A stretch of DNA of 44,175 nucleotides from the IMG/VR virus record IMGVR_UViG_3300045988_062919; one strand, written 5' to 3'. Positions within the stretch are counted from its first letter, which is position 1; each line of letters starts with the position of its first letter. The notes beneath the pieces are model-generated. The model was not told where the DNA came from. It saw only the letters and a program-made list of their open reading frames with translations, and did not search any database. Of the stretch, positions 6,029 through 38,687 are shown piece after piece. Both the position numbers and the translations under genes were made by a program. The DNA comes from a virus.

Positions 6029-6255
6029 ACTACAGGCTGAAAAATACGAACGGAAAGGTGACTTTCCTGCTTCGCACTGGAAAAGACTTGGTGAAAAACC
6101 AGATGGCGATTGCGTCTGCCCAGCACATCATCAACCATGGGAAGCTGATGAAATCGGATGTCAGCGGCTACCCCATCAACATCGACAACAAATGGTACTT
6201 TGAGGGCGAGGTTTCCAAGAGGACAGCTCCCCGCAAAGCGGAGGGTGAAGAATGA
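6025..6255 (+). CDS. Hypothetical protein
   Basis: GGAGG RBS and ATGA overlap. Confidence 0.55.
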   Translation: MNYRLKNTNGKVTFLLRTGKDLVKNQMAIASAQHIINHGKLMKSDVSGYPINIDNKWYFEGEVSKRTAPRKAEGEE

Positions 6256-6545
6256 GGACATACTATTCTGACTATATCCAGCACTGCATGAGATTCTATG
6301 CCAGACACCCCAACCCGAAGTTTCGTTCTGACGCTGATAAGCAGAACTGGTATGCCTGTGAACACGCTCTAAAGGGTTTCACTGACGCTGACAGGGACAT
6401 TCTGCTGTTTATTTACCGGGAGGGTGATACCATTCCCGATAATGTTTACAGGGTGTCTGTGCAGAAAAACATCAAGCGGGACAAGATTTGGGCTTTGGTA
6501 AACGAGTTGGAGCACAAAATTGCAAAAAGGAGGAGCCTGATTTGA
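6252..6545 (+). CDS. Hypothetical protein, possibly a small sigma-region-4-like or late transcription regulator
   Basis: GGAGGG RBS. The functional guess rests only on a weak resemblance to small phage regulator families. Confidence 0.45.
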   Translation: MRTYYSDYIQHCMRFYARHPNPKFRSDADKQNWYACEHALKGFTDADRDILLFIYREGDTIPDNVYRVSVQKNIKRDKIWALVNELEHKIAKRRSLI

Positions 6546-7398: not shown

Positions 7399-7449
7399 CT
7401 AATCATAAAAGGACAATAGATTGTCTTAATTAGATTGGGAGGTAATTTT

Positions 7450-7917
7450 ATGGTTCAAGAATATTGCCGGGGAGACATTTTCTTCATCACAGAAGGTACA
7501 CACACTGGCTCGGAGCAGAGCGGCGGCAGACCCGGTGTTATCGTCTCGAACGATCTCGGCAACAAGCACTCGCCCAATGTAGAAGTTGTATTCCTCACCT
7601 CACGAGAAAAGAAGCCCATGCCGACCCATGTGGAGGTGCTGTGCAAAGTTCCGTCTACTGCTCTCTGTGAGAACATTCAGACGGTCTCAAAAGAGCGGCT
7701 GGGCACTTTCATCCGCTCCTGCACTACGAGCGAAATGAAGAATATCGACCATGCGCTCCTATGTTCGCTCGGTCTTCACGCTCCTGCGGCTGTCGGGGGG
7801 GGGACTCAGGTTTCCACTTCTCCTTCGACAGAGGTTTCAAAGGCCGAAATCGAGCGGGATTTGTTCAAGAGTCTGTATGAACAGCTTTCAGACAAAGTGA
7901 TGGTGAGTAAACCTTGA
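7450..7917 (+). CDS. MazF/PemK (EndoA-like) endoribonuclease toxin domain with a ~45-aa C-terminal extension. No adjacent antitoxin ORF.
   Basis: RGDIFF...GSEQSGGRPGVIVSNDLGNKHSPNVEVVFLTS...PTHVEV...ENIQTVSKERL closely follows the MazF/EndoA pattern. GGGAGG RBS. Confidence 0.75.
   Translation: MVQEYCRGDIFFITEGTHTGSEQSGGRPGVIVSNDLGNKHSPNVEVVFLTSREKKPMPTHVEVLCKVPSTALCENIQTVSKERLGTFIRSCTTSEMKNIDHALLCSLGLHAPAAVGGGTQVSTSPSTEVSKAEIERDLFKSLYEQLSDKVMVSKP
7795..7803 (+). repeat. G9 homopolymer inside the C-terminal extension of the mazF-like gene
   Basis: Counted directly (encodes GGG in AAVGGGTQ). Confidence 0.9.
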
Positions 7918-8379
7918 ACACTGATGTAATGTTTAGTAGCAAAACCGATGATTGGGCAACACCACAAGATTTCTTTGATAAATTGGATTTTGAATTTCAG
8001 TTCACCCTCGACCCATGCGCCGATCTTCATAACCACAAGTGCGCTCGGTATTACAACCGGGAGCAGGACGGTCTAATTCATGATTGGGGGGGAACGAGTA
8101 TTCTGCAATCCCCCATACGGAAAAGAAATCGCAAAATGGGTTCAAAAATCTTTTGAGGAAAGTCGTAAGAAAAACACGCTCGTGGTTATGCTCATTCCAG
8201 CAAGAACTGACACAAAGTATTTTCACGACTTCATATACGGGAAGGCCGAGATAAGATTCATTCGTGGGCGGTTAAAGTTTGGAAATGCGAAAACCGCCGC
8301 TCCTTTCCCCTCCATGGTCGTGATATTCAGAAATGAGGAGGATTCCAATGACAGTAACACTCATACAGGCAACGCCTGA
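7914..8379 (+). pseudogene. Phage Dam-family DNA N6-adenine methyltransferase, split by a frameshift at a G7 tract (8086..8092)
   Basis: ORF 7914..8156 carries DDWATPQDFFDKLDFEFQFTLDPCA...LIHDWGG. ORF 8080..8379, in the +1 frame, carries RVFCNPPYG...MLIPARTDTKYFH. Removing one G gives a continuous HDWGERVFCNPPYG. Confidence 0.8.
8086..8092 (+). repeat. G7 homopolymer at the dam frame break
   Basis: Counted directly. Confidence 0.9.
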
Positions 8380-8962
8380 CCCCATCGAAACCATTGCGAA
8401 AATCGCAAGTATCTGCTATGACAGCGACCCCAAGAACCCGCTCGGACTGGTGAAACACCTGTACCGCAATGGACATCACAGTGTCTTTGAACACATCTAT
8501 TTTACCTTCAAAATCGAGGGTATCTCTCGTGCCTGTTCTCACCAGCTCGTGCGGCACCGGCACTGTAGTTTCACTCAGAGGTCTCAGAGGTACTGTTCCG
8601 AGGACGGTTTCAAAGTCGTGTGTCCCGGCACTGTCGTTGCCATGGGTGGGCAGTATGACTACGGAACCGTAGTGAATCGTATCTCAGAGTTTTACGAAGA
8701 AGCTCAACAGGTCGGTATTCCCAACGAGGACGCAAGGTACATTCTCCCCAACGCCTGTGAGACCTCGATGTATCTCTCCTGCAACTTGAGAGAGCTTATT
8801 CACATGGCGAATGAGCGGCTGTGCATGAGAGCACAGTGGGAAATCCGGGAGCTGGTACAACAGATGGTCTACTGTGTGAACGCTGACCTGTGGTTTATGT
8901 TGGTTCCCAAGTGCAAGAGCGGTCGTATCATCTGCAATGACCCCTGCGGTATGGAGGTGTGA
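8348..8962 (+). CDS. thyX: FAD-dependent thymidylate synthase ThyX
   Basis: ThyX signature RHRHCSFTQRSQRY (RHRxxSxxxxSQRY), plus HHSVFEH. GGAGG RBS. Confidence 0.9.
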   Translation: MTVTLIQATPDPIETIAKIASICYDSDPKNPLGLVKHLYRNGHHSVFEHIYFTFKIEGISRACSHQLVRHRHCSFTQRSQRYCSEDGFKVVCPGTVVAMGGQYDYGTVVNRISEFYEEAQQVGIPNEDARYILPNACETSMYLSCNLRELIHMANERLCMRAQWEIRELVQQMVYCVNADLWFMLVPKCKSGRIICNDPCGMEV

Positions 8963-11678: not shown

Positions 11679-11784
11679 AAGTAGTTAAAGTAGTTCAAAT
11701 CTTGAATTTGCGTAAAAGTCCTCTATAAGGGGGTCTATATAGTAAAAGTTTACGCAAAAACCGATTTTTAACTACTTCAACTAC
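11679..11784. repeat. Nested-palindrome element, copy A (outer inverted repeat AAGTAGTTAAAGTAGTT / AACTACTTCAACTAC; inner inverted repeat TTTGCGTAAA / TTTACGCAAA)
   Basis: Read directly. Homologous to the copies at 16038..16146 and 38552..38687. Confidence 0.85.
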
Positions 11785-11854: not shown

Positions 11855-12457
11855 ATGGCAGTGAAGAAAAACCCCGATGGTGAGAACAAGCCGCAGGTGA
11901 TTAAGAAGAAGCCGAGGGGCGGTAACTCCCCTGTGATTGGTATGAATGGGTACGATTTGGAGCCGGGTGACAATACGAAGTATCTGCAAGACTCCATGTA
12001 CCTGATGAACTTGCCTGACATTGATTTACATGATGTAGAGCAAGTGACAAATCGACTGAATGAGTATTTTGAGTTCATGGCTTCCAGTGATATGAAACCT
12101 ACGGTTTCTGGTATGGCATTGGCGTTGAACGGTATGAGCAGACGGACTTTGATTGCCATTGTGAACGACTATGCCACTGGTGGGTCTGGATATAAGACTG
12201 CGTTGCCGCAGGAAGTAGCACTCGTAATAAAAAAAGCTCATAGAGTTATGGAGGTTCTTTGGGAGAATTACTCGCAAAACGGCAAGATCAATCCCGTCAT
12301 GGGTATCTTCCTCGGCAAGAACAACTATGGCTATCAGGACAAGACCGAATATGTTGTCACTCCGAATGTTCAGCAGGACAACGACTATGACCCCGACTCT
12401 ATCAGACAGCGATACCTTATCGACTCTGAAAGCGACTCCGACTCTGAAAGCGACTAA
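11855..12457 (+). CDS. terS: Terminase small subunit
   Basis: It sits at the head of the packaging/morphogenesis block. KPTVSGMALALNGMSRRTL resembles the TerS HTH region. Acidic SESDSDSESD tail. Confidence 0.6.
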   Translation: MAVKKNPDGENKPQVIKKKPRGGNSPVIGMNGYDLEPGDNTKYLQDSMYLMNLPDIDLHDVEQVTNRLNEYFEFMASSDMKPTVSGMALALNGMSRRTLIAIVNDYATGGSGYKTALPQEVALVIKKAHRVMEVLWENYSQNGKINPVMGIFLGKNNYGYQDKTEYVVTPNVQQDNDYDPDSIRQRYLIDSESDSDSESD

Positions 12458-12472
12458 CGACTATCGACTATG

Positions 12473-12525
12473 AAACCGCCGCTCGTATTCTCTGGTTTCC
12501 ACCGGGGAAAAGCGGCGGTTTTTCT
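12473..12525 (+). terminator. Hairpin plus T-run after terS
   Basis: ACCGCCGCT (12475..12483) pairs with AGCGGCGGT (12511..12519) and is followed by TTTTT. The loop is large (27 nt). Confidence 0.5.
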
Positions 12526-12653
12526 ATTGGGGGCAGATCGTCCCCCGGTGGAGGTGGAGCCGGTGGAGCGTTGGCGGGTTTTTGGTTTTTCCCTATATAA
12601 TGTATAAGAGATAATGAACAATCCGAAAAAGATAAAATTTTTCTGAAAACCTC

Positions 12654-12682
12654 TTGACAATTCGGAAAAGCTGAATTATACT
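12654..12682 (+). promoter_or_regulatory. Sigma-70-type promoter of the accessory island (TTGACA, 17 nt spacer, TATACT)
   Basis: TTGACAATTCGGAAAAG closely resembles the -35 region of the promoter at 40747. Confidence 0.55.
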
Positions 12683-12737
12683 ATAATCGTAACAGGACAG
12701 CAAACAATCCGAATGAGATTATATGGAGGTTTTCAAA

Positions 12738-12968
12738 ATGAGAAAATACGAATTGACCCCGGCAGACGGTAGAAAAAGCTTTTACGGGAAAGCGGTTGTA
12801 ATTGTGGAGGACAACGGGACAGAAACGCTATACAGTTACGAGACGCCCATTATTAAAAGGCTTGTTTCCGGGGAATTAGTCAAGCTGTGGAACGATTGGA
12901 CAGCAACGACAGGCCGACGCATTAAAGCATTTTGCGGATTAAGCAAAGCGGAATATATGAGCTTGTAA
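12738..12968 (+). CDS. Hypothetical protein (accessory island)
   Basis: GGAGG at 12725..12729 lies 8 nt upstream of ATG 12738. Confidence 0.55.
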   Translation: MRKYELTPADGRKSFYGKAVVIVEDNGTETLYSYETPIIKRLVSGELVKLWNDWTATTGRRIKAFCGLSKAEYMSL

Positions 12969-12984
12969 GAGGAGGTAAAAGACA

Positions 12985-13305
12985 ATGAAAGTTAAAACCA
13001 CGAGAAAAGCCGTTATAAATGGTTCTGTAAATGTTCGTTCTGCGGGGTATTGTGATCTATGCTATTTGCTCAATAATCACTCCCCCATTGCTTACACCTG
13101 CGGTGTATATGGCTGGAATTTCGATGTTTACGAGGTGTACGGCGTGACAATCTGCACAGGGTATAGAAATATGCCGGGGGCAAGGCTTGAAGGCATTAGA
13201 GAATACAACGAAAAAGCGAAAGCTATTCTTTCATGGGAAAACAAAGCCCCGTATGAAAAAAGCGGGAACAAGTGGAAAAGCTGTTGCAAGAGTTTTGCAA
13301 GCTGA
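12985..13305 (+). CDS. Hypothetical protein. An alternative C-terminus in the -1 frame, reached through the A6 run at 13256..13261, would end at 13319.
   Basis: GGAGG RBS. The -1 frame after the A-run reads KKREQVEKLLQEFCKLNGGY and stops 2 nt before the next ATG. Confidence 0.55.
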   Translation: MKVKTTRKAVINGSVNVRSAGYCDLCYLLNNHSPIAYTCGVYGWNFDVYEVYGVTICTGYRNMPGARLEGIREYNEKAKAILSWENKAPYEKSGNKWKSCCKSFAS

Positions 13306-13321
13306 ACGGAGGTTATTAAAA

Positions 13322-13666
13322 ATGAGGGCTTACACCTTTACCGAAAACGGCTACACATTCAAGCGTATAAACAAAACACAAGCACGGCGGGCATATAATA
13401 ACGGGTTGCGCGTGGTGGTTTGTCCTGTCAATTTGCGCCCCGGTTACCCGTGGCACCCGGAAATAATCGTTTCTGGAAAGTCCGGGGTAACATTTGAGGA
13501 AATGTTAAACGCCTTTATTTTCTACAATATTCGAGATAATGAAACGAGCAAATATCCCGCCTATTATATCCCGGTTGAAACGGTGGACAGGTTCACCGGG
13601 AAAATGCCCACGGCGGGAACATTGGGAACGGTGGAGCAATACGCATATAGCTATATGGAGGGCTGA
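13322..13666 (+). CDS. Hypothetical protein (accessory island)
   Basis: GGAGG at 13308..13312 and ATG at 13322. Confidence 0.55.
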   Translation: MRAYTFTENGYTFKRINKTQARRAYNNGLRVVVCPVNLRPGYPWHPEIIVSGKSGVTFEEMLNAFIFYNIRDNETSKYPAYYIPVETVDRFTGKMPTAGTLGTVEQYAYSYMEG

Positions 13667-13669
13667 AAA

Positions 13670-14017
13670 ATGGCAAAATACATATTCAGAACAACGGCAA
13701 CAATGAAACCATACAATAATAAAAATTGGTGGATTGGTGGCGATATTATCCCGACAAAACACATTGAAGCGGATAGCGTGAAAGACGCTTTACAGGTTTT
13801 CCGGGAGATTGTGGACAATCAGCATTATATCAGTATTTCAGACAGGGCATTAAAGAACAAAAGCCCTATGTATAGAGATACTGAGGACGGGGACGCTTTA
13901 CAAGTCGGTTATGTTATCACCGGCAAAACGGAATTTCAACGGGATTCCGGGGAATGGGTTACACAATATATAGATTTGTGGGTTGAAATTATAACCACAG
14001 TCGCAACGATTTTTTAA
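13670..14017 (+). CDS. Hypothetical protein (accessory island)
   Basis: GGAGGG RBS and tight spacing. Confidence 0.55.
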   Translation: MAKYIFRTTATMKPYNNKNWWIGGDIIPTKHIEADSVKDALQVFREIVDNQHYISISDRALKNKSPMYRDTEDGDALQVGYVITGKTEFQRDSGEWVTQYIDLWVEIITTVATIF

Positions 14018-14029
14018 GGGGGGTTCATC

Positions 14030-14323
14030 ATGAGAAATTACAATCAGATTGCAACAGACAATCTAAACGCACTTATGAAAGAAATAGCGGAATATACCCG
14101 GATGGCTGAGGAGATCAGCGCAACGCTTGACGGGTTGACAGACAAACTAAAAAAGCATATGGAGGAAAACGGGCTTGAAAGTATCGCCGGGAATGAACAC
14201 AAGGCAAGCTATAAAGCCGTGACAAGTTCCCGAATTGATACAACGGCATTAAAGCGGGATATGCCCGATATAGCCGCAACATATACCAAAACGACAGTTA
14301 CAAAACGCTTTAGATTCGTGTAA
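14030..14323 (+). CDS. Hypothetical coiled-coil protein (accessory island)
   Basis: RBS-like GGGGGG upstream of the start. Confidence 0.5.
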   Translation: MRNYNQIATDNLNALMKEIAEYTRMAEEISATLDGLTDKLKKHMEENGLESIAGNEHKASYKAVTSSRIDTTALKRDMPDIAATYTKTTVTKRFRFV

Positions 14324-14338
14324 TAGGAGGGTTGAACA

Positions 14339-14539
14339 ATGTATAAAAGTGTTTATGATCTGTCCCCCGCCGAAATGGAAGAATTAAGACAATCGTATTT
14401 TTATCAGTTACAAAACGAAAGCCCGGAAATATTGCAAGGCATTACAGACCCCGAACAAATATCAGACGATATTATACAAGAACAGTATAGCGGCGTTTCT
14501 TTTGTGGATGATGATTTTTTCTGTAATATGAAGGGTTAA
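14339..14539 (+). CDS. Hypothetical acidic protein (accessory island)
   Basis: GGAGGG RBS. Confidence 0.5.
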   Translation: MYKSVYDLSPAEMEELRQSYFYQLQNESPEILQGITDPEQISDDIIQEQYSGVSFVDDDFFCNMKG

Positions 14540-14542
14540 AAA

Positions 14543-14611
14543 ATGGGGCTTGTGATTTTGCTTGTGTTTCCGTTTATGCTGATGGCTGAGATTCTGAAAA
14601 GAAATAAATAA
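14543..14611 (+). CDS. Possible 22-aa hydrophobic peptide
   Basis: MGLVILLVFPFMLMAEILKRNK, immediately before a terminator. No clear RBS. Confidence 0.25.
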   Translation: MGLVILLVFPFMLMAEILKRNK

Positions 14612-14619
14612 TACATATA

Positions 14620-14646
14620 CCCCGCCTATATTGGGCGGGGTTTTTC
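14620..14646 (+). terminator. Rho-independent terminator
   Basis: CCCCGCC-TATATTG-GGCGGGG followed by TTTTTCT. Confidence 0.8.
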
Positions 14647-14672
14647 TATGCCCTCTATAATCGGCCTGTATT

Positions 14673-14696
14673 GCCCTGTGGAGGGCTTTTTATTTT
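14673..14696 (+). terminator. Second tandem rho-independent terminator
   Basis: GCCCT-GTGG-AGGGC followed by TTTTTATTTT. Confidence 0.6.
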
Positions 14697-15135
14697 GGGG
14701 GTATTCCCTATATACCCGGCTATTATATGGGCTTGTATGGCTTGCTATGGGCTTATATGCAAGGGCTTTATATAATGGGCTTTATATTGTGAGCGTTGCG
14801 TTATTGCGCGGGCTTGTTATGTTGTGCGCTTGTGTTCTTGCGTTTCTCTGTTATGTTCTTGTGTTATGGGCTTGTGTGTTGTGTTCTTGTGTGCGCTATG
14901 GGATAATATAGCGGCTTGCGCTGTCCTGCATTGTGGGCGGTTTGTTTGGTGTCGTTGGGGTGTCCTCTATTGGGTATTATGATAATACTATTTTTAGAGT
15001 TGTGTTTTTCTGTTTTGATAGTGCTATCAAGTGGGCGGGGGTTCAATGATAGCGGAGCGAATAGCCCCGGAGGGCATACCCCCGGAGGGGGACAGCGACC
15101 CGCCGCACGAGCCGCAGGGAGTGGCTTGAGTAGCC
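14697..15135 (+). other. Non-coding, strongly G+T-skewed degenerate-repeat region followed by a GC-rich structured segment
   Basis: No RBS-preceded ORF. Contains repeated TATGGGCTT-like and TGTTCTTG-like units and palindromes at 14974..14988 and 15015..15030. Confidence 0.6.
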
Positions 15136-15183
15136 GAAAAATCGAAAAAGAAACAAAAAGGATATAAAGTTATCTTATAAGTA

Positions 15184-15213
15184 TTGACAACACACTCTGT
15201 TATATGATAATAT
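15184..15213 (+). promoter_or_regulatory. Sigma-70-type promoter (TTGACA with an extended -10, TGaTAATAT) for the Xre/recombinase operon
   Basis: TTGACA at 15184..15189 and TG at 15205..15206 preceding TAATAT. Confidence 0.55.
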
Positions 15214-15243
15214 TATCTCACAAAGACAAAGGAGGAATTTCCA

Positions 15244-15459
15244 ATGGCAGTTTTGAACGATATTGAAATTGATGTGAAGACCCTGTGCGTGCAGAACCGC
15301 ACCACTCAGGAGCAAATCGCAAAGGCTGTTGGCACAACGGGTCAGTATGTCAACCGGGTCATTCACAAAGAGGACGGTCTTATCAATCGCACTTTCATCA
15401 ACATCATGGAAGCTCTTGGTTACGACATCAAACTGACTTATGTTCCACGAGAACCGTAA
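15244..15459 (+). CDS. Xre-family helix-turn-helix DNA-binding protein
   Basis: TQEQIAKAVGTTGQYVNRVIH HTH pattern. GGAGG RBS. Confidence 0.7.
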   Translation: MAVLNDIEIDVKTLCVQNRTTQEQIAKAVGTTGQYVNRVIHKEDGLINRTFINIMEALGYDIKLTYVPREP

Positions 15460-15474
15460 TAGGAGGTGAACCAC

Positions 15475-16047
15475 ATGAAAGTGGGTTATGTGCGGGTGAG
15501 CACCGTTGAGCAAAACCTTGCTCGGCAGTTGGAGCTGATGAAGACCCTCGGTGTGGAGAAAATCTACTGTGACAAAATGAGTGGGAAAAACACAGAGCGT
15601 ACCGAGTTTAAGGAAATGATGGAGTTTCTGCGAGAGGGTGACACCCTGTATGTGGAGTCCTTCTCCCGGCTTTCCAGAAGCACCCTCGATTTCTTAAACA
15701 CTGTGAGCAGGTTACAGGCCAAGAGTGTGAATCTTGTGTCCGACAAGGAAAAGATGGATATGTCCACTCCGCAAGGTAAGTTTATGGTGACGGTGTTTGC
15801 CGCACTCTCCGAGCTGGAACGAACCAGTATGCTCGAGAGACAGCGGGAGGGTATCGAGATTGCCAAGGCCGAGGGGAAATACAAAGGGCGAAAACCCATT
15901 CCCGCCAACGAAAAGTTCTTTGCGGTGGCAAACGCTTGGGCGGGAGGTAAGATTGCTCTCAAAGACGCAATCCGGGAGTCTGGTATGTCCTCCTCCACTT
16001 TCTTTCGCAAATGCAAGCAGTTTGAAATCAGCAAAAGAAGTAGTTAA
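15475..16047 (+). CDS. Small serine recombinase (resolvase/invertase, Hin/Gin-like) with a C-terminal HTH
   Basis: MKVGYVRVSTVEQN (catalytic Ser motif), LYVESFSRLSRS, ALSELERTSMLERQREG, about 190 aa. AGGAGG lies 8 nt upstream of the start. Confidence 0.85.
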   Translation: MKVGYVRVSTVEQNLARQLELMKTLGVEKIYCDKMSGKNTERTEFKEMMEFLREGDTLYVESFSRLSRSTLDFLNTVSRLQAKSVNLVSDKEKMDMSTPQGKFMVTVFAALSELERTSMLERQREGIEIAKAEGKYKGRKPIPANEKFFAVANAWAGGKIALKDAIRESGMSSSTFFRKCKQFEISKRSS

Positions 16048-16146
16048 AGTAGTGGAAAATCAGGTTTTGCGTGTAACTTCCTCTTAGCATACGCATATAT
16101 AGCAAAAGTTTACGGAAAAATCGAAAATCAACTACTTTAACTACTT
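16038..16146. repeat. Nested-palindrome element, copy B. It overlaps the last codons and the stop codon of the serine recombinase gene.
   Basis: AAGTAGTTAAAGTAGT ... AACTACTTTAACTACTT, with inner arms TTTTGCGTGTAACTT / AAGTTTACGGAAAA. Confidence 0.85.
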
Positions 16147-16163
16147 GATGGGAGGGAAACGCC

Positions 16164-16739
16164 ATGGGGCGATACGATAATTTTCACAACACTAAGAATA
16201 TTGAAAAGGCGCAGAAAAAGCTCGATAAGCTCTTGAGCAAGCGAAAGCCCGACCAGTATCAAATTGATCTGGCAAGGGAAGCTCTCGACAATGCGAAATT
16301 GTTTGAAAGCTGTCAGATTTTTAAGAGCTTCAACGGTCGTGCGCCGAATGAGAACATTATGTTCAGTGACGATAACCGAGTGATATGGTTCATCAAGTAT
16401 CTCATTCCCTATGACGAAATCACTTCGTATTCCATCGTGGAGAATGTGGTACAAAAAGCTCAAACCCAGACCAAGAGCAAAGGCGTTATCTCACGAGCTA
16501 TCATCGGAGGAGCGATTGCAGGCGGGGTTGGTGCGGTCGTTGGGGCGGCTTCTGCGGGGTCACAGTCTCAAACAACCTACTACACCGAGGGCGAAGGATT
16601 CTTCTTGCAAATTTTCACCAAGGGCGGAGACCGATATAGCTGTCATATCGAAAGTGACGGTTTTATTTCAAACAAAGTACACCCGAAATGGCTTGAGCTT
16701 GGAACGAAGTTGCAATCCATCATTGACGGGAAGGTGTAA
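16164..16739 (+). CDS. Hypothetical protein with a central glycine-zipper segment (moron-like position between the recombinase and terL)
   Basis: GGGAGGG RBS. Sequence IIGGAIAGGVGAVVGAASAG. Confidence 0.6.
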   Translation: MGRYDNFHNTKNIEKAQKKLDKLLSKRKPDQYQIDLAREALDNAKLFESCQIFKSFNGRAPNENIMFSDDNRVIWFIKYLIPYDEITSYSIVENVVQKAQTQTKSKGVISRAIIGGAIAGGVGAVVGAASAGSQSQTTYYTEGEGFFLQIFTKGGDRYSCHIESDGFISNKVHPKWLELGTKLQSIIDGKV

Positions 16740-16752
16740 AATTGATTTAGAA

Positions 16753-16807
16753 TGGCGCATGATTGCGAGAGCGTAATGCTCAAACGGTCATGCGTCATTT
16801 TTCTTTT
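16753..16807 (+). promoter_or_regulatory. Terminator-like leader RNA motif, copy 1 (immediately upstream of terL)
   Basis: GGCGCATGA...TCATGCGTC stem with one G-U pair, an inner hairpin GAGC-GTAAT-GCTC, and a T-run ending at the terL RBS. Confidence 0.55.
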
Positions 16808-16816
16808 GGAGGTATT

Positions 16817-18457
16817 ATGCGAAAGTTACTTGAGACAATTTTTGAAAAAATCAAAAAGAGCCATGAGTACCAGTCCATGGAAGACCTGTACTACATGAGC
16901 AAGGAAGCCATGAAAACCGACAGCGACCTTGGCGTAGAATTTTTGAAGCTACTGTCAGCAGAATGTGAGAAAACCATGCGCAATACCGCCATATCCGGGG
17001 AGCAGGTGCGGCTGGTTTATGATTTGCACAAGCGTGTATGCCTGACCGCCGCTCCTTACGATTTTGACAGCTACCTCCTCTATGTGGAGTGGAACCGAGA
17101 CCCGGAGAAAAAGTTCTACCCTCCCCGCAGGAAGGTGCTGAAACGGGTGGTAGACGCTCTGCAAGAGCTGGCAGACGATAAACTGGATTTGTTGGCGGTC
17201 TCTCTTCCACCGGGCGCAGGAAAAACCACTCTGGCTATCTTCTACCTCACATGGCTCGGCGGGAAAATTCCCAATGACCCTATCCTGACCGGCTCGCACT
17301 CCAACAGCTTTGTCCGAGGGGTATACGATGAATGTCTGCGCATATTTGACCGCAACGGAGACTATCTGTGGCACGATGTTTTCCCCGACATCAAGGTGTC
17401 CAACACCAACGCAAAAGACTGCCGCATTGACCTTGACAAGAGACAGCGTTTTGAGACCTTGGAGTTCACCTCTATCGGAACTGGCAATGCTGGTCTGTAT
17501 CGTGCGGCTACTCTGCTCTACTGTGATGACTTGGTATCTGGTATTGAAGTTGCTCTGTCCAAGGAGCGATTGGACAAGCTGTGGGAGACCTACACCACTG
17601 ACTTGAGACAGCGTAAAATCGGAGATCACTGTAAAGAACTTCACATTGCAACCCGTTGGTCTGTCCACGATGTCATTGGTCGGCTTGAGCGGGAGTATAT
17701 CGACAGTGACCGGGCAAAATTCATTGTGATTCCCGCTCTTGATGAAAACGATGAATCCAATTTTGACTATGCTTATGGCGTGGGGTTCAACACAAGATTT
17801 TATCACGAGCAGAGGAACATCATGGACGATGTGAGCTGGCGAGCACTGTATATGAACGAGCCGATTGAGCGTGAGGGCTTGGTTTATGCACAAGACGAGC
17901 TTCGCCGCTACTTCGAGTTGCCGAAGGAAGACCCTGACGCAATCATTGGTATCTGCGACACCAAGGACAAAGGAGCGGACTACGCTTTCCTGCCGGTGGC
18001 GTATGTGTATGGGCAGGATTATTATATTGACGATTGCGTGTGCGACAATGGGCTACCCAATATCGTGGACGCTCGGCTGACGGAAATCCTTATGCGGGAC
18101 AAGGTGAAATCCTGCCGGTTCGAGTCTAATTCCGCTGGGCGGCGGGTCGCTGAGAAAATACAGGAGGAAGTAAAGAAAAAAGGCGGTATCACGCACATCA
18201 CCACCAAGTTCACCACTGCTAACAAGGAAACGAAAATCATCGTAAACAGCGCATGGGTCAAGGAACACTGCCTGTTCAAAGACGCTTCTCTCTACCAGCG
18301 GAAGTCAGACTACGGCAAGATGATGGATATGCTCTGCTCTTACACAATGGCTGGTAAGAATAAGCACGATGATGTTCCCGATGGCATGGCAATGCTGGCT
18401 GAATATGCCCAAAGCCTGAGCGGACAAAAGGTGGAAGTTTTCAAACGACCTTGGTAA
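16817..18457 (+). CDS. terL: Terminase large subunit
   Basis: Walker A LPPGAGKTT, Walker B LLYCDD, nuclease-domain-like C-terminus. GGAGG RBS. Confidence 0.85.
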   Translation: MRKLLETIFEKIKKSHEYQSMEDLYYMSKEAMKTDSDLGVEFLKLLSAECEKTMRNTAISGEQVRLVYDLHKRVCLTAAPYDFDSYLLYVEWNRDPEKKFYPPRRKVLKRVVDALQELADDKLDLLAVSLPPGAGKTTLAIFYLTWLGGKIPNDPILTGSHSNSFVRGVYDECLRIFDRNGDYLWHDVFPDIKVSNTNAKDCRIDLDKRQRFETLEFTSIGTGNAGLYRAATLLYCDDLVSGIEVALSKERLDKLWETYTTDLRQRKIGDHCKELHIATRWSVHDVIGRLEREYIDSDRAKFIVIPALDENDESNFDYAYGVGFNTRFYHEQRNIMDDVSWRALYMNEPIEREGLVYAQDELRRYFELPKEDPDAIIGICDTKDKGADYAFLPVAYVYGQDYYIDDCVCDNGLPNIVDARLTEILMRDKVKSCRFESNSAGRRVAEKIQEEVKKKGGITHITTKFTTANKETKIIVNSAWVKEHCLFKDASLYQRKSDYGKMMDMLCSYTMAGKNKHDDVPDGMAMLAEYAQSLSGQKVEVFKRPW

Positions 18458-18511
18458 TTCACAATTCCCACCGAGTTTTCAACAAATAATTCTCGAAACA
18501 AGAATCATAAC

Positions 18512-18540
18512 TTGACTTTCGGGAATTAAAATGCTATAAT
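18512..18540 (+). promoter_or_regulatory. Near-consensus sigma-70 promoter (TTGACT, 17 nt spacer, TATAAT) between terL and portal
   Basis: Read directly: TTGACT at 18512..18517 and TATAAT at 18535..18540. Confidence 0.6.
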
Positions 18541-18566
18541 ATATGCGAAAAGTTATAGTTTGAGTT

Positions 18567-18625
18567 TGGCGCATGATTGCGAGTATGGCGAAAGCCCTAC
18601 GAACAGTCATGCGTCTTTTTATTTT
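18567..18625 (+). promoter_or_regulatory. Terminator-like leader RNA motif, copy 2 (immediately upstream of portal)
   Basis: Same GGCGCATGATTGCGAG...GTCATGCGTC+T-run as copy 1. The inner hairpin here is GGC-GAAA-GCC. Confidence 0.55.
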
Positions 18626-18646
18626 AGAGGAAAGGAGGGAGCAATC

Positions 18647-20107
18647 TTGGGAAATGTGATCGACACCTCAAAGCCGGTGAGCAAAACCCGGCAAATGAGC
18701 GGCAGACGGGTTATCAAGTCCAGCGTGAAGGAGATTACCAACGAGAATGTGGTTACGGTTTTGCAGAAAGCCCTCAACGACCACGCTCTCAACCGCAGTG
18801 AGATTGATTACTTGTGGAAGTACTACAAGGGCGAGCAACCCATTCAGAATCGGACGAAAGAAGTCCGTCCCGAAATCTGCAACAGGATTGTGGAGAACCG
18901 GGCGAACGAGATTGTTTCCTTCAAGGTCGGTTATCTCTGCGGAGAACCCATCCAGTATATCGGCAGAAGCACTGAGGAAAGCGTCACCTCTGGTATTACG
19001 GCTCTGAATGAGCTGATGTTTGCCGAGGACAAAGCCACGCAAGACCAAGAGATTGTGGAATGGCAGATGATTTGCGGAACCGCTTTTCGCTTGGTGTTGC
19101 CCGATGAATCGGATGATGAAGACGAGTCCCCGTTTGAAATGTACACGCTCGACCCCCGTGACACCTTCGTTGTGTATTCCAATGAAATCGGAAACAAGCC
19201 GCTGATGGCGGTAAAGTACAGCAAAGACGAGGACGAGGTAACGCACTATTCCGTTTACACCGAGAACTACTACTGGCTGATTGATGGGGACATCATCAAT
19301 CGGGAGGAGTCCAAGGCTCATGCTCTGGACATGATTCCGATTTTTGAGTACCCGGCAAACAACGCTCGGCTTGGCTCTTTTGAGATTGTCCTTCCTCTTC
19401 TGGACGCAATCAACAACACTGAGTCTAACCGTATGGATGGCGTGGAGCAGTTCATTCAAGCGTTCTGGAAATTCATCGGTTGCCACATCGAGAAAGAGAA
19501 ATTCAAAGAATTTCTTGCGGAGGGTGCAATTCTCGTACCGCCTAACGACAATGGCGGCAACATTGATGTTGACCTCGTTGTGAAGGAACTGAATCAGGGG
19601 CAGACGCAGACGCTCAAAGACGATCTGTACAACGCTGTCCTCACCATCTGCGGTATGCCCAACAGAAACGGCGGCAGTTCTACTTCCGACACCGGGGCGG
19701 CGGTGCTCCTGCGTGATGGCTGGTCGCTTGCGGAAGCGAGGGCAAAAGACAGCGAGCATATGTTCAAAAAAGCCGAAAAGAAAATGCTCAAGCTGGTTCT
19801 CCGTATCTGCCGAGACCTGTCTGACATCAATCTCCGCTTGAAGGACATCGAATTGCAGTTTACCAGACGCAATTATGAGAACATTCAGAGCAAGTCTCAG
19901 GTGTTGGTGGCCATGCTACAGCAGTCGAAGATTCACCCTCTGTTGGCGTTCCAGCACAGCGGCCTATTCGTAGACCCGGAAAGGGCGTACACCATGAGCA
20001 TGGAGTATTACGAGGAACAGCAGGAAAAGCTGGCGCAACAGCAGATGGCGGCGCAGAACAACCCGAACAATCCGAAAAACCCGGACAGTTCGGACGAAGA
20101 CGAATAA
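18647..20107 (+). CDS. Portal protein (SPP1 gp6-like)
   Basis: TTG start 8 nt after GGAGG. Size and position after terL. LWKYYKGEQPI and a conserved central region. Confidence 0.8.
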   Translation: MGNVIDTSKPVSKTRQMSGRRVIKSSVKEITNENVVTVLQKALNDHALNRSEIDYLWKYYKGEQPIQNRTKEVRPEICNRIVENRANEIVSFKVGYLCGEPIQYIGRSTEESVTSGITALNELMFAEDKATQDQEIVEWQMICGTAFRLVLPDESDDEDESPFEMYTLDPRDTFVVYSNEIGNKPLMAVKYSKDEDEVTHYSVYTENYYWLIDGDIINREESKAHALDMIPIFEYPANNARLGSFEIVLPLLDAINNTESNRMDGVEQFIQAFWKFIGCHIEKEKFKEFLAEGAILVPPNDNGGNIDVDLVVKELNQGQTQTLKDDLYNAVLTICGMPNRNGGSSTSDTGAAVLLRDGWSLAEARAKDSEHMFKKAEKKMLKLVLRICRDLSDINLRLKDIELQFTRRNYENIQSKSQVLVAMLQQSKIHPLLAFQHSGLFVDPERAYTMSMEYYEEQQEKLAQQQMAAQNNPNNPKNPDSSDEDE

Positions 20108-34749: not shown

Positions 34750-34864
34750 TGTTAAACGGTAAAAATCATCAAATACTGTTTCGCCGTACCCATTGGTAAA
34801 AAATAGTTTGGAGGGACAGGGTTAGTAGGTTCACTCTCGAAAGCCCTGTAAGAAACAAAAGCAG

Positions 34865-35953
34865 ATGAAAAGGTTTGGATTCCTCTATGAACGGATAGTT
34901 TCAGTGGAAAATTGCAGACTGGCTATCCTCAACGCTTCTCAAAAGAAGAAAAAGCGAAAAATGGTGAAAGAAGTCCTTGATAATTTGGAGTATTACGCCA
35001 ACGACCTTTCCGAGCGAATGAGCCGCATGGATTTTCTCTCCCCATATAAGACCCGTATTATCAAGGACGGGTTATCTGGAAAAGAACGGGAACTGCAAGT
35101 CCCGGCGTTCTACCCCGACCAGTGCGCACACCACGCCATTATGCAGATTCTCAAGCCGATTATTGAGAAATCGTCCTACCGATGGAGTTGCGCCAATATC
35201 CCCAACCGGGGCATTGACCTTGCTTGCAAGGGTGTGGAGAGAGCCACTGTGCGGGACAGGAAACACGCAAAATATTGCGTGAAAATGGACATTAGCAAGT
35301 TCTACCCATCTATTCCTCATGGCAAGCTGAAAGCCCGACTGCGGGAGAAAATCAAAGACGAAAAGGCTTTGCAAATCATCTTCAAGGTGATTGACTCCCA
35401 CAATCCGGGGCTTCCCATCGAGAACTATACTTCCCCTTGGCTGGCAGAACTATACCTGCAACCGCTGGATTACCTTATCAAGCAAAAGCACCGAATACGG
35501 CACTATATCCGCTACGCTGACGATCTGGTGCTGATAGACAGCAACAAACGAAAGCTGAGGAAAGCTCTTCACGATATTTTCCTGTTTGTGGAGGAGCTGG
35601 GTATGACGGTGAAACACGACTACCAGTTGTTTCGTATTCAGCCATACTGCAAGGAAAGGACAGGCCGCAGGGGACGAAAGATAGATTTCGTAGGGAGGTG
35701 TTTCGGAATTGGTTTTACCACCATCCGAAAGAGAAGGGCGTTGGCACTTATGCGGCAGAGCAGGTTTATTCAAAAGCTACAGCGGCAGAACCGGCCTGTC
35801 TCATACAGAATGGCTTCCGGGTTTCTCTCCCGGTGCGCCTGTTTCAAGCACACCAACTCATACGCCATGAAGAAAAAGTACTACGAAACGGTCAACATCA
35901 AAAAGTTAAAGGAGGTTGTCAGCAATGAGAGTAAGAGGAAATGTCTCGCCTAA
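34865..35953 (+). CDS. DGR reverse transcriptase
   Basis: RT motifs including IRYADDLVL (YADD box) and GLPIENYTSPWLAELYL (resembles the DGR-type GxxxSQ motif region). Adjacent to the TR. Confidence 0.85.
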   Translation: MKRFGFLYERIVSVENCRLAILNASQKKKKRKMVKEVLDNLEYYANDLSERMSRMDFLSPYKTRIIKDGLSGKERELQVPAFYPDQCAHHAIMQILKPIIEKSSYRWSCANIPNRGIDLACKGVERATVRDRKHAKYCVKMDISKFYPSIPHGKLKARLREKIKDEKALQIIFKVIDSHNPGLPIENYTSPWLAELYLQPLDYLIKQKHRIRHYIRYADDLVLIDSNKRKLRKALHDIFLFVEELGMTVKHDYQLFRIQPYCKERTGRRGRKIDFVGRCFGIGFTTIRKRRALALMRQSRFIQKLQRQNRPVSYRMASGFLSRCACFKHTNSYAMKKKYYETVNIKKLKEVVSNESKRKCLA

Positions 35954-38262: not shown

Positions 38263-38557
38263 TCTTACCCCTATCATCACCGCAGTTCTGACCCTCATTT
38301 TCTCGCTGATTACCGCTTTCCTCATTCCCTATATCAAGACCAAGGTGAGTGCGGAACAATTCGCCACCATCAAGCTGTGGGTGCAGGTCGCTGTACAGGC
38401 GGCAGAAATGCTCTATGTCGGTAGCGGCAGAGGAGAGGAAAAGAAGAAATATGTGATTGAGTTTCTGAACAGCAAGGGGTTCACGCTGAACGCAGAGGAG
38501 ATTGAAAACCTCATTGAATCCGCTGTCTTGGAGCTGAAACAGCCGCAGGTAAAGTAG
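38255..38557 (+). CDS. Holin (LL-H-like family)
   Basis: N-terminal TM segment IITAVLTLIFSLITAFLIPYI, and YVIEFLNSKG, typical of LL-H-type holins. Its stop codon lies inside repeat element C. Confidence 0.6.
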   Translation: MVDLTPIITAVLTLIFSLITAFLIPYIKTKVSAEQFATIKLWVQVAVQAAEMLYVGSGRGEEKKKYVIEFLNSKGFTLNAEEIENLIESAVLELKQPQVK

Positions 38558-38687
38558 TTAAAGTAGTTAAAGTAGTTAAAGTAGTTAAAGTAGTTAAAAA
38601 TCGGTTTTTGCGTAAACTTTCTCTATATACACGCGTACTATGCAAAAGTTACACGCAAAAACCAAAGAACAACTACTTTAACTACTT
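38552..38687. repeat. Nested-palindrome element, copy C, with a 5x tandem GTAGTTAAA array (38554..38598) in its left arm
   Basis: Read directly. The right arm AACTACTTTAACTACTT is at 38671..38687. Confidence 0.9.

Follow-up and report, generated by a model that had tools for sequence, protein, structure and literature searches.

Known paradigms for the control of late genes in phages are the N and Q systems of lambda and the activators of the RinA/ArpU type; late control in lambda comprises the constitutive promoter PR', a short 6S RNA, the terminator tR' and the antiterminator Q. To our knowledge, late-gene control in the temperate phages of gut Bacillota is essentially uncharacterised. Hairpins between phage genes are known in the form of the intercistronic RNase III sites of T7 and SP82, which are repeated, sequence-conserved and interrupted hairpins of ~20 bp. 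A further precedent is the HMP-PP (thiS motif) riboswitch, which was recognised as an unusually conserved terminator with a second, exclusive consensus fold sharing the apical stem (PMC6478431). The element considered here lies in the virus record IMGVR_UViG_3300045988_062919 of IMG/VR, a stretch of 44,175 nt of which the full length is referred to as the window, and occurs there twice, once upstream of terL, the gene for the large terminase subunit, and once upstream of the portal gene. Both copies are predicted to fold as terminators in which the 5' arm can also form a hairpin on its own.

Two copies of the hairpin in the window and their relatives

The copy upstream of terL, T1, occupies positions 16751-16807 and the copy upstream of the portal gene, T2, positions 18565-18625, both on the + strand and both defined by sequence, RNA fold and a covariance-model match. 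In T1 the 5' arm of the outer stem P1 (16754-16765) pairs with its 3' arm (16785-16796), the inner hairpin P2 is formed by 16769-16772 with 16778-16781, and the U-tract follows at 16797-16807; the corresponding parts of T2 are P1 arms at 18568-18579 and 18604-18615, an inner hairpin at 18583-18600 with a GAAA loop, and a U-tract at 18616-18625. The closing stem of both copies is 12 bp long (GGCGCAUGAUUG / CRGUCAUGCGUC), with a G.U pair and further U.G wobbles, and a small internal loop separates it from the inner hairpins, which read GAGC-GUAAU-GCUC in T1 and GUA/GGC-GAAA-GCC/UAC in T2. Within the whole window the 16-mer GGCGCATGATTGCGAG has exact matches at 16754 and 18568 (+ strand) only, and GTCATGCGTC at 16787 and 18606 only. 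The fold energies, -28.5 kcal/mol for T1 (z -5.7) and -28.4 kcal/mol for T2 (z -4.7), were equalled by none of 200 shuffles, and a covariance model derived from relatives scores T1 at 63.2 bits (E 3e-14) and T2 at 52.5 bits (E 2e-11), the next-best match in the window being the antisense strand of T1 at 15.6 bits. Two model-matched sites in the window are far beyond chance.

Each U-tract extends to the Shine-Dalgarno sequence of the next gene, which begins 1-8 nt after the last base of the tract. Behind T1 stands GGAGGT at 16808, followed by the ATG of terL at 16817 (16817-18457, +; PHROG 38, E 6e-62), and behind T2 stands AGGAGGG at 18633, followed at 18647 by the TTG of a portal gene of the SPP1 Gp6 type (18647-20107, +; Pfam SPP1_portal, E 2e-103), which opens the head and tail operon. 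A first-pass annotation, made from the letters of the sequence, had described a duplicated motif at these two places, upstream of the ribosome-binding sites (RBS) of terL and the portal gene, and the exact sequence matches and model matches bear this out. Its inner hairpins, differing in sequence and retaining their pairing (GAGC-GUAAU-GCUC and GGC-GAAA-GCC), read as described, and the G-U pair it reported is present in both closing stems, the length of which has to be corrected from 9 bp to 12 bp.

A scan of IMG/VR with a 15-mer of the 5' arm returned more than 119 loci, and the whole arrangement of hairpin, U-tract, RBS and start codon was found in 84 of 139 matches. Together with the two copies of the window these make up 86 full instances. 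The alignment statistics given below refer to 83 distinct sequences. The gene downstream is a portal gene in 43 of the 86 instances and terL in 30; on distant contigs it may instead encode an HNH endonuclease, a metallophosphoesterase, an HExxH protein, an arginine-rich 64-aa protein or a tape-measure-like protein. The 15-mer is kept intact even in contigs with a portal protein only 42-48% identical to that of the window. A sample independent of the motif was also assembled, consisting of 77 loci fetched through portal homology alone (62-100% identity), and in nearly all of these the covariance model (R1) has exactly two matches on the + strand, one ~1.9 kb upstream of the portal gene, before terL, and the other ~80 nt upstream of the portal gene.

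The motif is not confined to the terL/portal pair, as can be seen from the layout of two loci (L003 and L067) in which two copies stand 3984 nt apart around another set of genes, encoding an arginine-rich 64-aa protein, an HTH_17 protein, a 592-aa protein, a GP3_package protein and a DUF5055 protein. A gene for a tape-measure-like protein of >960 aa follows the second of these copies. In three other loci (L306-308) the T2 position, ~80 nt upstream of the portal gene and behind a promoter, is taken by a terminator of unrelated sequence. Part of the 3' arm of this terminator recurs in its loop as AAGCA, which suggests that the design of a competitor inside a terminator may have arisen more than once.

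Searches of Rfam 15 gave no relevant match at the gathering score, nor at E <= 10 around both copies or at E <= 1 in six relatives, in agreement with the first-pass statement that the motif is no known Rfam family. It was present in no GenBank phage record searched, no paper was found which contains its sequence or describes such a motif, and a scan of genome contigs with the 15-mer gave only chance matches among the matches listed. The exact terL protein of the window was found on metagenome contigs only. The closest cultured relative as judged by the portal protein (42% identity) is Clostridium phage Maintenon, the host of which is [Clostridium] innocuum, and this phage has a small unrelated terminator before its portal gene. 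T1 and T2 are members of an undescribed, widespread family of cis-acting RNAs in uncultured gut Bacillota phages.

The terminator fold and a competing 5'-arm hairpin

Across the 83 distinct sequences, 98.3% of the cells of the terminator fold are paired and double changes occur in 12 of 16 pairs, values which were reached by none of 500 shuffles and which compare with 34-53% paired in slid controls; these counts should be considered with caution as they are inflated by relatedness, there being only ~6-7 distinct stem types, which differ mostly by transitions. RNAalifold independently arrived at the same hairpin (-27.4 kcal/mol, 14 of 18 pairs compensated). All 83 copies have at least 6 U within the 10 nt after the stem (mean 7.8), and the median distance from the stem is 15 nt to the start of the Shine-Dalgarno sequence and 26 nt to the start codon. 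Averaged over the 86 relatives, the energy of the completed terminator is -29 kcal/mol. Both the stem-loop stability and the sense-strand U-tract by which Rho-independent terminators are recognised are present, and each copy is predicted from its fold to be a strong terminator of this type. A U.G wobble at columns 13-72 is conserved in 64 of the 83 sequences. As such wobbles become C.A mismatches on the other strand, and as the model scores are asymmetric between the strands, the function can be assigned to the sense RNA. The terminator-shaped, RNA-level structure proposed by the first-pass annotation is in keeping with these strand-specific scores and with the real covariation among relatives, and the covariance-model search which it had suggested for further homologues with compensatory changes yielded many, with compensated pairs.

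The 5' arm is itself self-complementary. Its consensus GYGCR-UNAU-YGCRC allows a hairpin of 4-5 bp, which in the window reads CGCA-UGAU-UGCG and in T1 occupies 16756-16767 (+), with a first segment, seg1, CGCA at 16756-16759, the loop UGAU at 16760-16763 and a second segment, seg2, UGCG at 16764-16767; the alternative hairpin of T2 lies at 18570-18581. Elsewhere it takes the forms GUGCA-UGAU-UGCAC, GUGCG-UUAU-CGCAC, CACA-UGAU-UGUG and GUACG-UUAU-CGUAC, and in a shifted variant, CGUAA-UGAU-UUACG, the alternative pairing is kept with a different stem sequence. For seg1 the small hairpin is in competition with the 3' arm of the terminator. The last positions of seg2 (16766-16767 in T1, 18580-18581 in T2) have partners in seg1 but none in the terminator fold.

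The pairing of seg1 with seg2 was absent from the covariance model that produced the alignment, and the alignment contains covariation for it. In the 83 distinct sequences pair 6-17 is UA in 45 and CG in 36, with 1 mismatch, and its column 17 has no partner in the terminator; the counts at pair 9-14 are AU 57, GC 22 and GU 2; pair 7-16 is GC in 80, AU in 1 and GU in 1; and pair 8-15 is invariant. Triples made up of seg1, seg2 and the 3' arm change together (UAA 45 and CGG 37; AUU 59 and GCC 23; GCC 78 and AUU 3). When hairpins were chosen solely as preceding a portal homologue, 91% of 5' arms could fold on themselves with at least 4 bp around a 4-nt loop, as compared to 25% of 3' arms; in shuffled arms the self-hairpin averages 3.0 bp, and a mirror self-hairpin in the 3' arm found no support. 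The stems of T1 and T2 often differ within one genome, each being internally complementary, and in 13 genomes GUGCG-UUAU-CGCAC stands at terL and GUGCA-UGAU-UGCAC at the portal gene. That complementarity is retained when the stems of one genome differ indicates that base pairing is what is constrained, and not a fixed sequence for recognition by a protein.

Folding of the nascent transcript up to the emergence of the 3' arm places the small hairpin beside P2 in the minimum-free-energy structure of 71 of the 86 instances. The small hairpin covaries separately, including at a column which is unpaired in the terminator, and so selection appears to act on both folds. Such a covarying hairpin, whose formation excludes that of the terminator, is the signature of an attenuator/antiterminator switch.

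A further complementarity was noted at T2, where CAUGAUUGC (18572-18580, in the 5' arm) is complementary to GCAAUCUUG (18641-18649, comprising the spacer after the Shine-Dalgarno sequence and the UUG of the portal gene). In closer relatives, and only in these, the portal start region reads GCAAUCAUGGG or GCAGUCAUGG, resembling the 3' arm of the hairpin. Pairing of the 5' arm with the portal start region could be a third option for the RNA or a coincidence.

Proposed conditional termination and its rivals

Transcription would reach the two copies in different ways. Ahead of T2 stands a near-consensus sigma-70 promoter, TTGACT-17-TGcTATAAT (18512-18540, +; promoter scan, 11/12 matches plus an extended TG), with 27 nt between the end of its -10 element and the T2 stem (hairpin start 18568); the terminated RNA predicted to run from this promoter to T2 is about 75-85 nt long. 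Among the relatives a promoter with at least 10/12 matches lies within 120 nt upstream of 87% of unique portal copies as against 2% of terL copies, the spacer of the portal-copy promoters is nearly always 17 nt, and the -10 element is separated from the hairpin by 29 nt in the median (25-35 nt). The terL copies are intercistronic and, by eye from their flanks, begin ~10-20 nt past the stop codon of a variable upstream open reading frame (ORF); T1 sits at the exact boundary between variable cargo genes and conserved terL. As there is no room for a promoter between hairpin and RBS, terL can be transcribed only by read-through of T1, and since the U-tract abuts the RBS, any transcript from the portal promoter must cross T2. 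A promoter overlapping T1, from which transcription would begin within the stem, was also considered and set aside, -10-like hexamers abutting a minority of terL copies (by eye) with no matching -35 element found.

The reading that we favour, with about even confidence, is that each copy is a two-state attenuator, whose conditional termination would insulate and gate the packaging and head genes. The small 5'-arm hairpin and P2 would form first in the nascent RNA, the 5' arm folding on itself (seg1-UNAU-seg2) and leaving P2 intact; the emerging 3' arm would then displace seg2, and the terminator of about -29 kcal/mol would be complete as polymerase reaches the U-tract. Termination would be the default, keeping transcription out of the packaging and head genes, so that at T1 transcripts from the variable cargo genes would be stopped, and at T2 those from the constitutive-looking sigma-70 promoter, giving an RNA of ~80 nt. 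In lytic growth an effector would stabilise the 5'-arm hairpin, or otherwise block strand invasion, and read-through would follow. As the element is inherited with the terL-portal module and the upstream genes vary, such an effector is more likely to be a host factor or a product of the module than one of the variable early region.

Several points weigh against the attenuator. The small hairpin is weak, its mean energy being -5.7 kcal/mol as compared to -29 kcal/mol for the terminator, and its free loop would offer a toehold for strand invasion, so that by itself it may barely lower termination. No antiterminator, N-like or Q-like family was found among the scanned ORFs of the window (Pfam, PHROGs), and the scarcity of conserved nucleotides that are unpaired in both folds speaks against a ligand pocket. 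The unrelated terminators at the same site in L306-308 and Maintenon suggest that plain termination may be the conserved function, and the relatedness which inflates the covariation counts belongs with these points. The first-pass annotation had proposed antitermination or a riboswitch-like attenuator; obligatory read-through and the second exclusive hairpin speak for this proposal, but neither an antiterminator family in the scanned ORFs nor the nucleotides of a ligand pocket could be added to them.

A number of candidates for the trans-acting factor or for the mechanism of release were examined, and none gained support. The 71-aa Xre-type helix-turn-helix (HTH) protein and the small serine recombinase encoded upstream of T1 were the only products which a search by co-occurrence linked to the module; both are of DNA-binding types and neither is universal. 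The product of 6252-6545, an early protein named in the first-pass annotation, has no family match and was found in 1 related locus only, which is a weak test as most loci end short of that upstream region. Attenuation mediated by a leader peptide or the ribosome was discounted, as transcription is likely to start downstream of the ATG at 18543 and the small leader ORFs of relatives, on inspection, are not conserved. The G.A pattern needed for a K-turn or loop E in the internal loop is inconsistent (inspection). Long-range pairing of 18459-18470, just past the terL stop codon, with 18648-18659, the first portal codons, is 92% complementary, which is not above shuffles, and is patchily conserved.

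The layout at T2 resembles that of lambda PR'-tR', in which a strong promoter, here constitutive-looking, and a very short leader are followed by a strong terminator before the late structural operon, and this likeness implies that an override is needed. Unlike the Q system, however, no Q-family protein was found in the scanned window ORFs, T1 has no promoter and the pause element is not enriched, a -10-like hexamer (at least 5/6) of the kind expected for a Q-like sigma-dependent pause occurring in 34% of leaders and 33% of shuffled leaders. In lambda the sequence of the terminator is not the element of specificity, whereas here the terminator itself is conserved and would have two states. The small hairpin, as a possible recognition element of 5 bp in nascent RNA with two copies per genome in different units, also recalls the boxB of lambda N/nut and the put sites of HK022, the latter being similar too in the two adjacent stem-loops of the alternative fold. 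It differs from lambda nut in its tetraloop, UNAU (UGAU/UUAU) and not a GNRA-like pentaloop, and in overlapping the terminator that would have to be suppressed, where nut precedes terminators at a distance. As for the arginine-rich N protein, no gene like that for N was recognised, and no search for boxA was made.

There is the possibility that these are unregulated terminators or insulators, constitutive and perhaps deliberately leaky, which shield the packaging and head module from the transcription of cargo genes (morons) and set a fixed ratio of expression; the 5'-arm hairpin would then merely tune efficiency or prevent mispairing with changing upstream sequence. Such a constitutive, tuned terminator is a serious rival, if a somewhat doubtful one. 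Every copy has the full anatomy of a terminator, T1 sits at the junction of variable cargo genes and conserved terL, other terminators occupy the same place in L306-308 and Maintenon, effector families are absent from the scanned window ORFs and the small hairpin is weak. However, ordinary terminators do not stay conserved in sequence while the adjoining portal protein drops to 42% identity, nor do they keep a second fold through triple covariation, and a strong stop 25-35 nt past a consensus promoter, ahead of the whole head operon, would make little sense unless it could be overridden.

A sensor embedded in the terminator is unlikely in our estimation. The 5'-arm hairpin and P2, possibly with a pseudoknot from loop to 3' arm, would here capture a small molecule, or else a factor of host or phage origin, in the short time before invasion by the 3' arm. 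The precedent is the HMP-PP riboswitch, to which the motif is similar in reusing the lower 5' arm, in keeping the apical P2 and in being a switch of ~50 nt tied to particular downstream genes (PMC6478431). The motif differs from this riboswitch in that no sequence or covariance-model similarity exists between them, the ON-state stem would be a simple hairpin of 4-5 bp with a variable UNAU loop, few unpaired bases are conserved, no pseudoknot core or ligand is evident, and the genes are terL and portal and not those for thiamin.

That the element serves in RNA processing or stability, as an RNase III site or 5' stabiliser whose helix uncouples the terL and portal mRNAs from upstream RNA, or that it is the gene for a ~80-nt small RNA which binds or titrates a protein, appears quite improbable. 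The coaxial helix of 12 bp and 4-6 bp with its internal loop is like the RNase III sites that lie between genes in T7 and SP82, which share with it the repetition of interrupted ~20-bp hairpins between genes, and the length of the helix and its loop would be compatible with cleavage. Those sites have no obligatory U-tract and no known competing 5'-arm hairpin, and processing would leave the invariant U-tract and the seg1:seg2 covariation unexplained. Promoter, short leader and terminator are together the anatomy of a small RNA gene, but T1 has no promoter and therefore cannot be one, and the single-stranded leader is not conserved.

A site acting at the level of DNA, whether an operator or 'stoperator' for a dimer such as the 71-aa HTH protein, or recombination, module-exchange or pac-related repeats flanking terL, is highly improbable: the 14-bp palindrome GYGCR-N4-YGCRC would suit an HTH dimer in size, a protein of that kind (Xre type) and a serine recombinase are linked to the module, and incongruent terL and portal identities (86% and 65% in L309/L310; 63-64% and 74-75% in L262-275) imply that recombination does occur between the two genes, but the half-sites differ between the copies of one genome while being complementary within each copy, mismatches at pairs 6-17 and 9-14 are all but absent, a strictness for which a degenerate operator has no need, G.U wobbles are tolerated, the spacing of the arms ranges from ~6 to 55 nt, which is incompatible with a dimer bridging both arms, and the sense strand alone scores, with U-tract and RBS spacing conserved. 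By analogy, the element may be likened to the terminators which flank morons and to the stoperators of mycobacteriophages, as an oriented element at a module boundary that would keep lytic genes silent against read-through from genes active in the prophage. Stoperators, however, are asymmetric DNA sites bound by a repressor and have one sequence per genome, whereas here the element is an RNA hairpin of which the copies differ within a genome.

Neighbouring genes and the meaning of the motif

The transcription unit that runs into T1 (15184-16739, +; promoter scan, Pfam, PHROGs) has its own promoter at 15184-15211 and encodes, all on the + strand, the 71-aa Xre-type HTH protein (15244-15459), the small serine recombinase, which is of the DNA-invertase type with 193 aa (15466-16047), and a glycine-zipper protein (16164-16739). 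Of 92 related loci, 66 encode the Xre-type HTH protein at a distance of 0.35-1.7 kb upstream of terL, and 46 have the recombinase upstream of terL. In other loci (L262, L265, L278, L281, L313 and others) the last gene before T1 is often a ~35-40-aa ORF, absent from the window, with a hydrophobic N-terminus and an Arg/Lys-rich tail (e.g. MWVLAILIFPFAVLYEIVKMNEQSYHRGKRKRRKRF, hand-translated).

The portal promoter has features of its own. An inverted repeat around its -35 box, TAATTCTCGAAA / TTTCGGGAATTA (18487-18528; inverted-repeat search), is probably an operator, and its arms co-vary among relatives (TTCGCAAAA/TTTTGCGAA and TTCGTAAAA/TTTTACGAA). Operator-like palindromes are present at the portal promoters of the window and of related loci (e.g. 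L030, L046, L097 and L258), and a different class of portal promoter has the 434-like CACAAGATATTGTG in the spacer, sometimes repeated downstream of the -10 element. For the regulation of this promoter the 71-aa HTH protein is a candidate.

Further upstream, a candidate terS gene (11855-12457; weak matches to GP3_package and PHROG 606) lies about 4.3-4.4 kb from terL and is followed by a strong terminator of its own (12476-12518); the cargo region (12600-16740) contains promoters at 12654 and 15184 and a terminator at 14619-14641. In Clostridium phage Maintenon terS and terL are likewise split apart.

The window also contains repeats of a 9-nt unit, AAGTAGTTA, and a 16-mer, AAGTAGTTAAAGTAGT, with 8 exact matches where 0.01 would be expected. 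The repeats of AAGTAGTTA and AAGTAGTTAAAGTAGT lie at 11679-11694, at 16038-16053 (+) with 16131-16146 (-), and at 38552-38594 (+) with 38672-38687 (-). The inverted pairs of AAGTAGTTAAAGTAGT each enclose ~77-80 nt, one directly behind the gene for the small serine recombinase and one just before that for the large serine recombinase, and may be recombinase sites or small invertible segments. Matches to the Rfam families RT-18 (49.3 bits) and RT-17 (42.2 bits) were found within 34782-35953, directly upstream of a 362-aa ORF (34865-35953) that is presumed to encode the reverse transcriptase of a diversity-generating retroelement beside the tail genes. Other products of the window include a 733-aa protein with a C-terminal Erf domain (5-2206), a PemK/MazF-like toxin (7435-7917) and a ThyX thymidylate synthase (8333-8962).

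From the comparisons presented here, the motif is a real, widespread and hitherto undescribed RNA, best read as belonging to the terminator/antiterminator class; the evidence that two folds compete in it is unusually clear. It is a compact cis-element of ~55 nt which lends itself to modelling, and hundreds of metagenomic phage genomes contain it, but neither Rfam nor any of the GenBank phages searched. The covariation of both folds yields a precise and testable hypothesis centred on seg2, and the covariance model could be used to annotate the starts of late operons in viral dark matter. Should an effector exist, the motif would add a new system to those known for antitermination or riboswitch control, and it would be a compact means of making termination conditional in Firmicutes; if it proves to be a sensor, it would form a new riboswitch-like or nut-like class which times or licenses the packaging and head genes in a large clade of uncultured gut phages.

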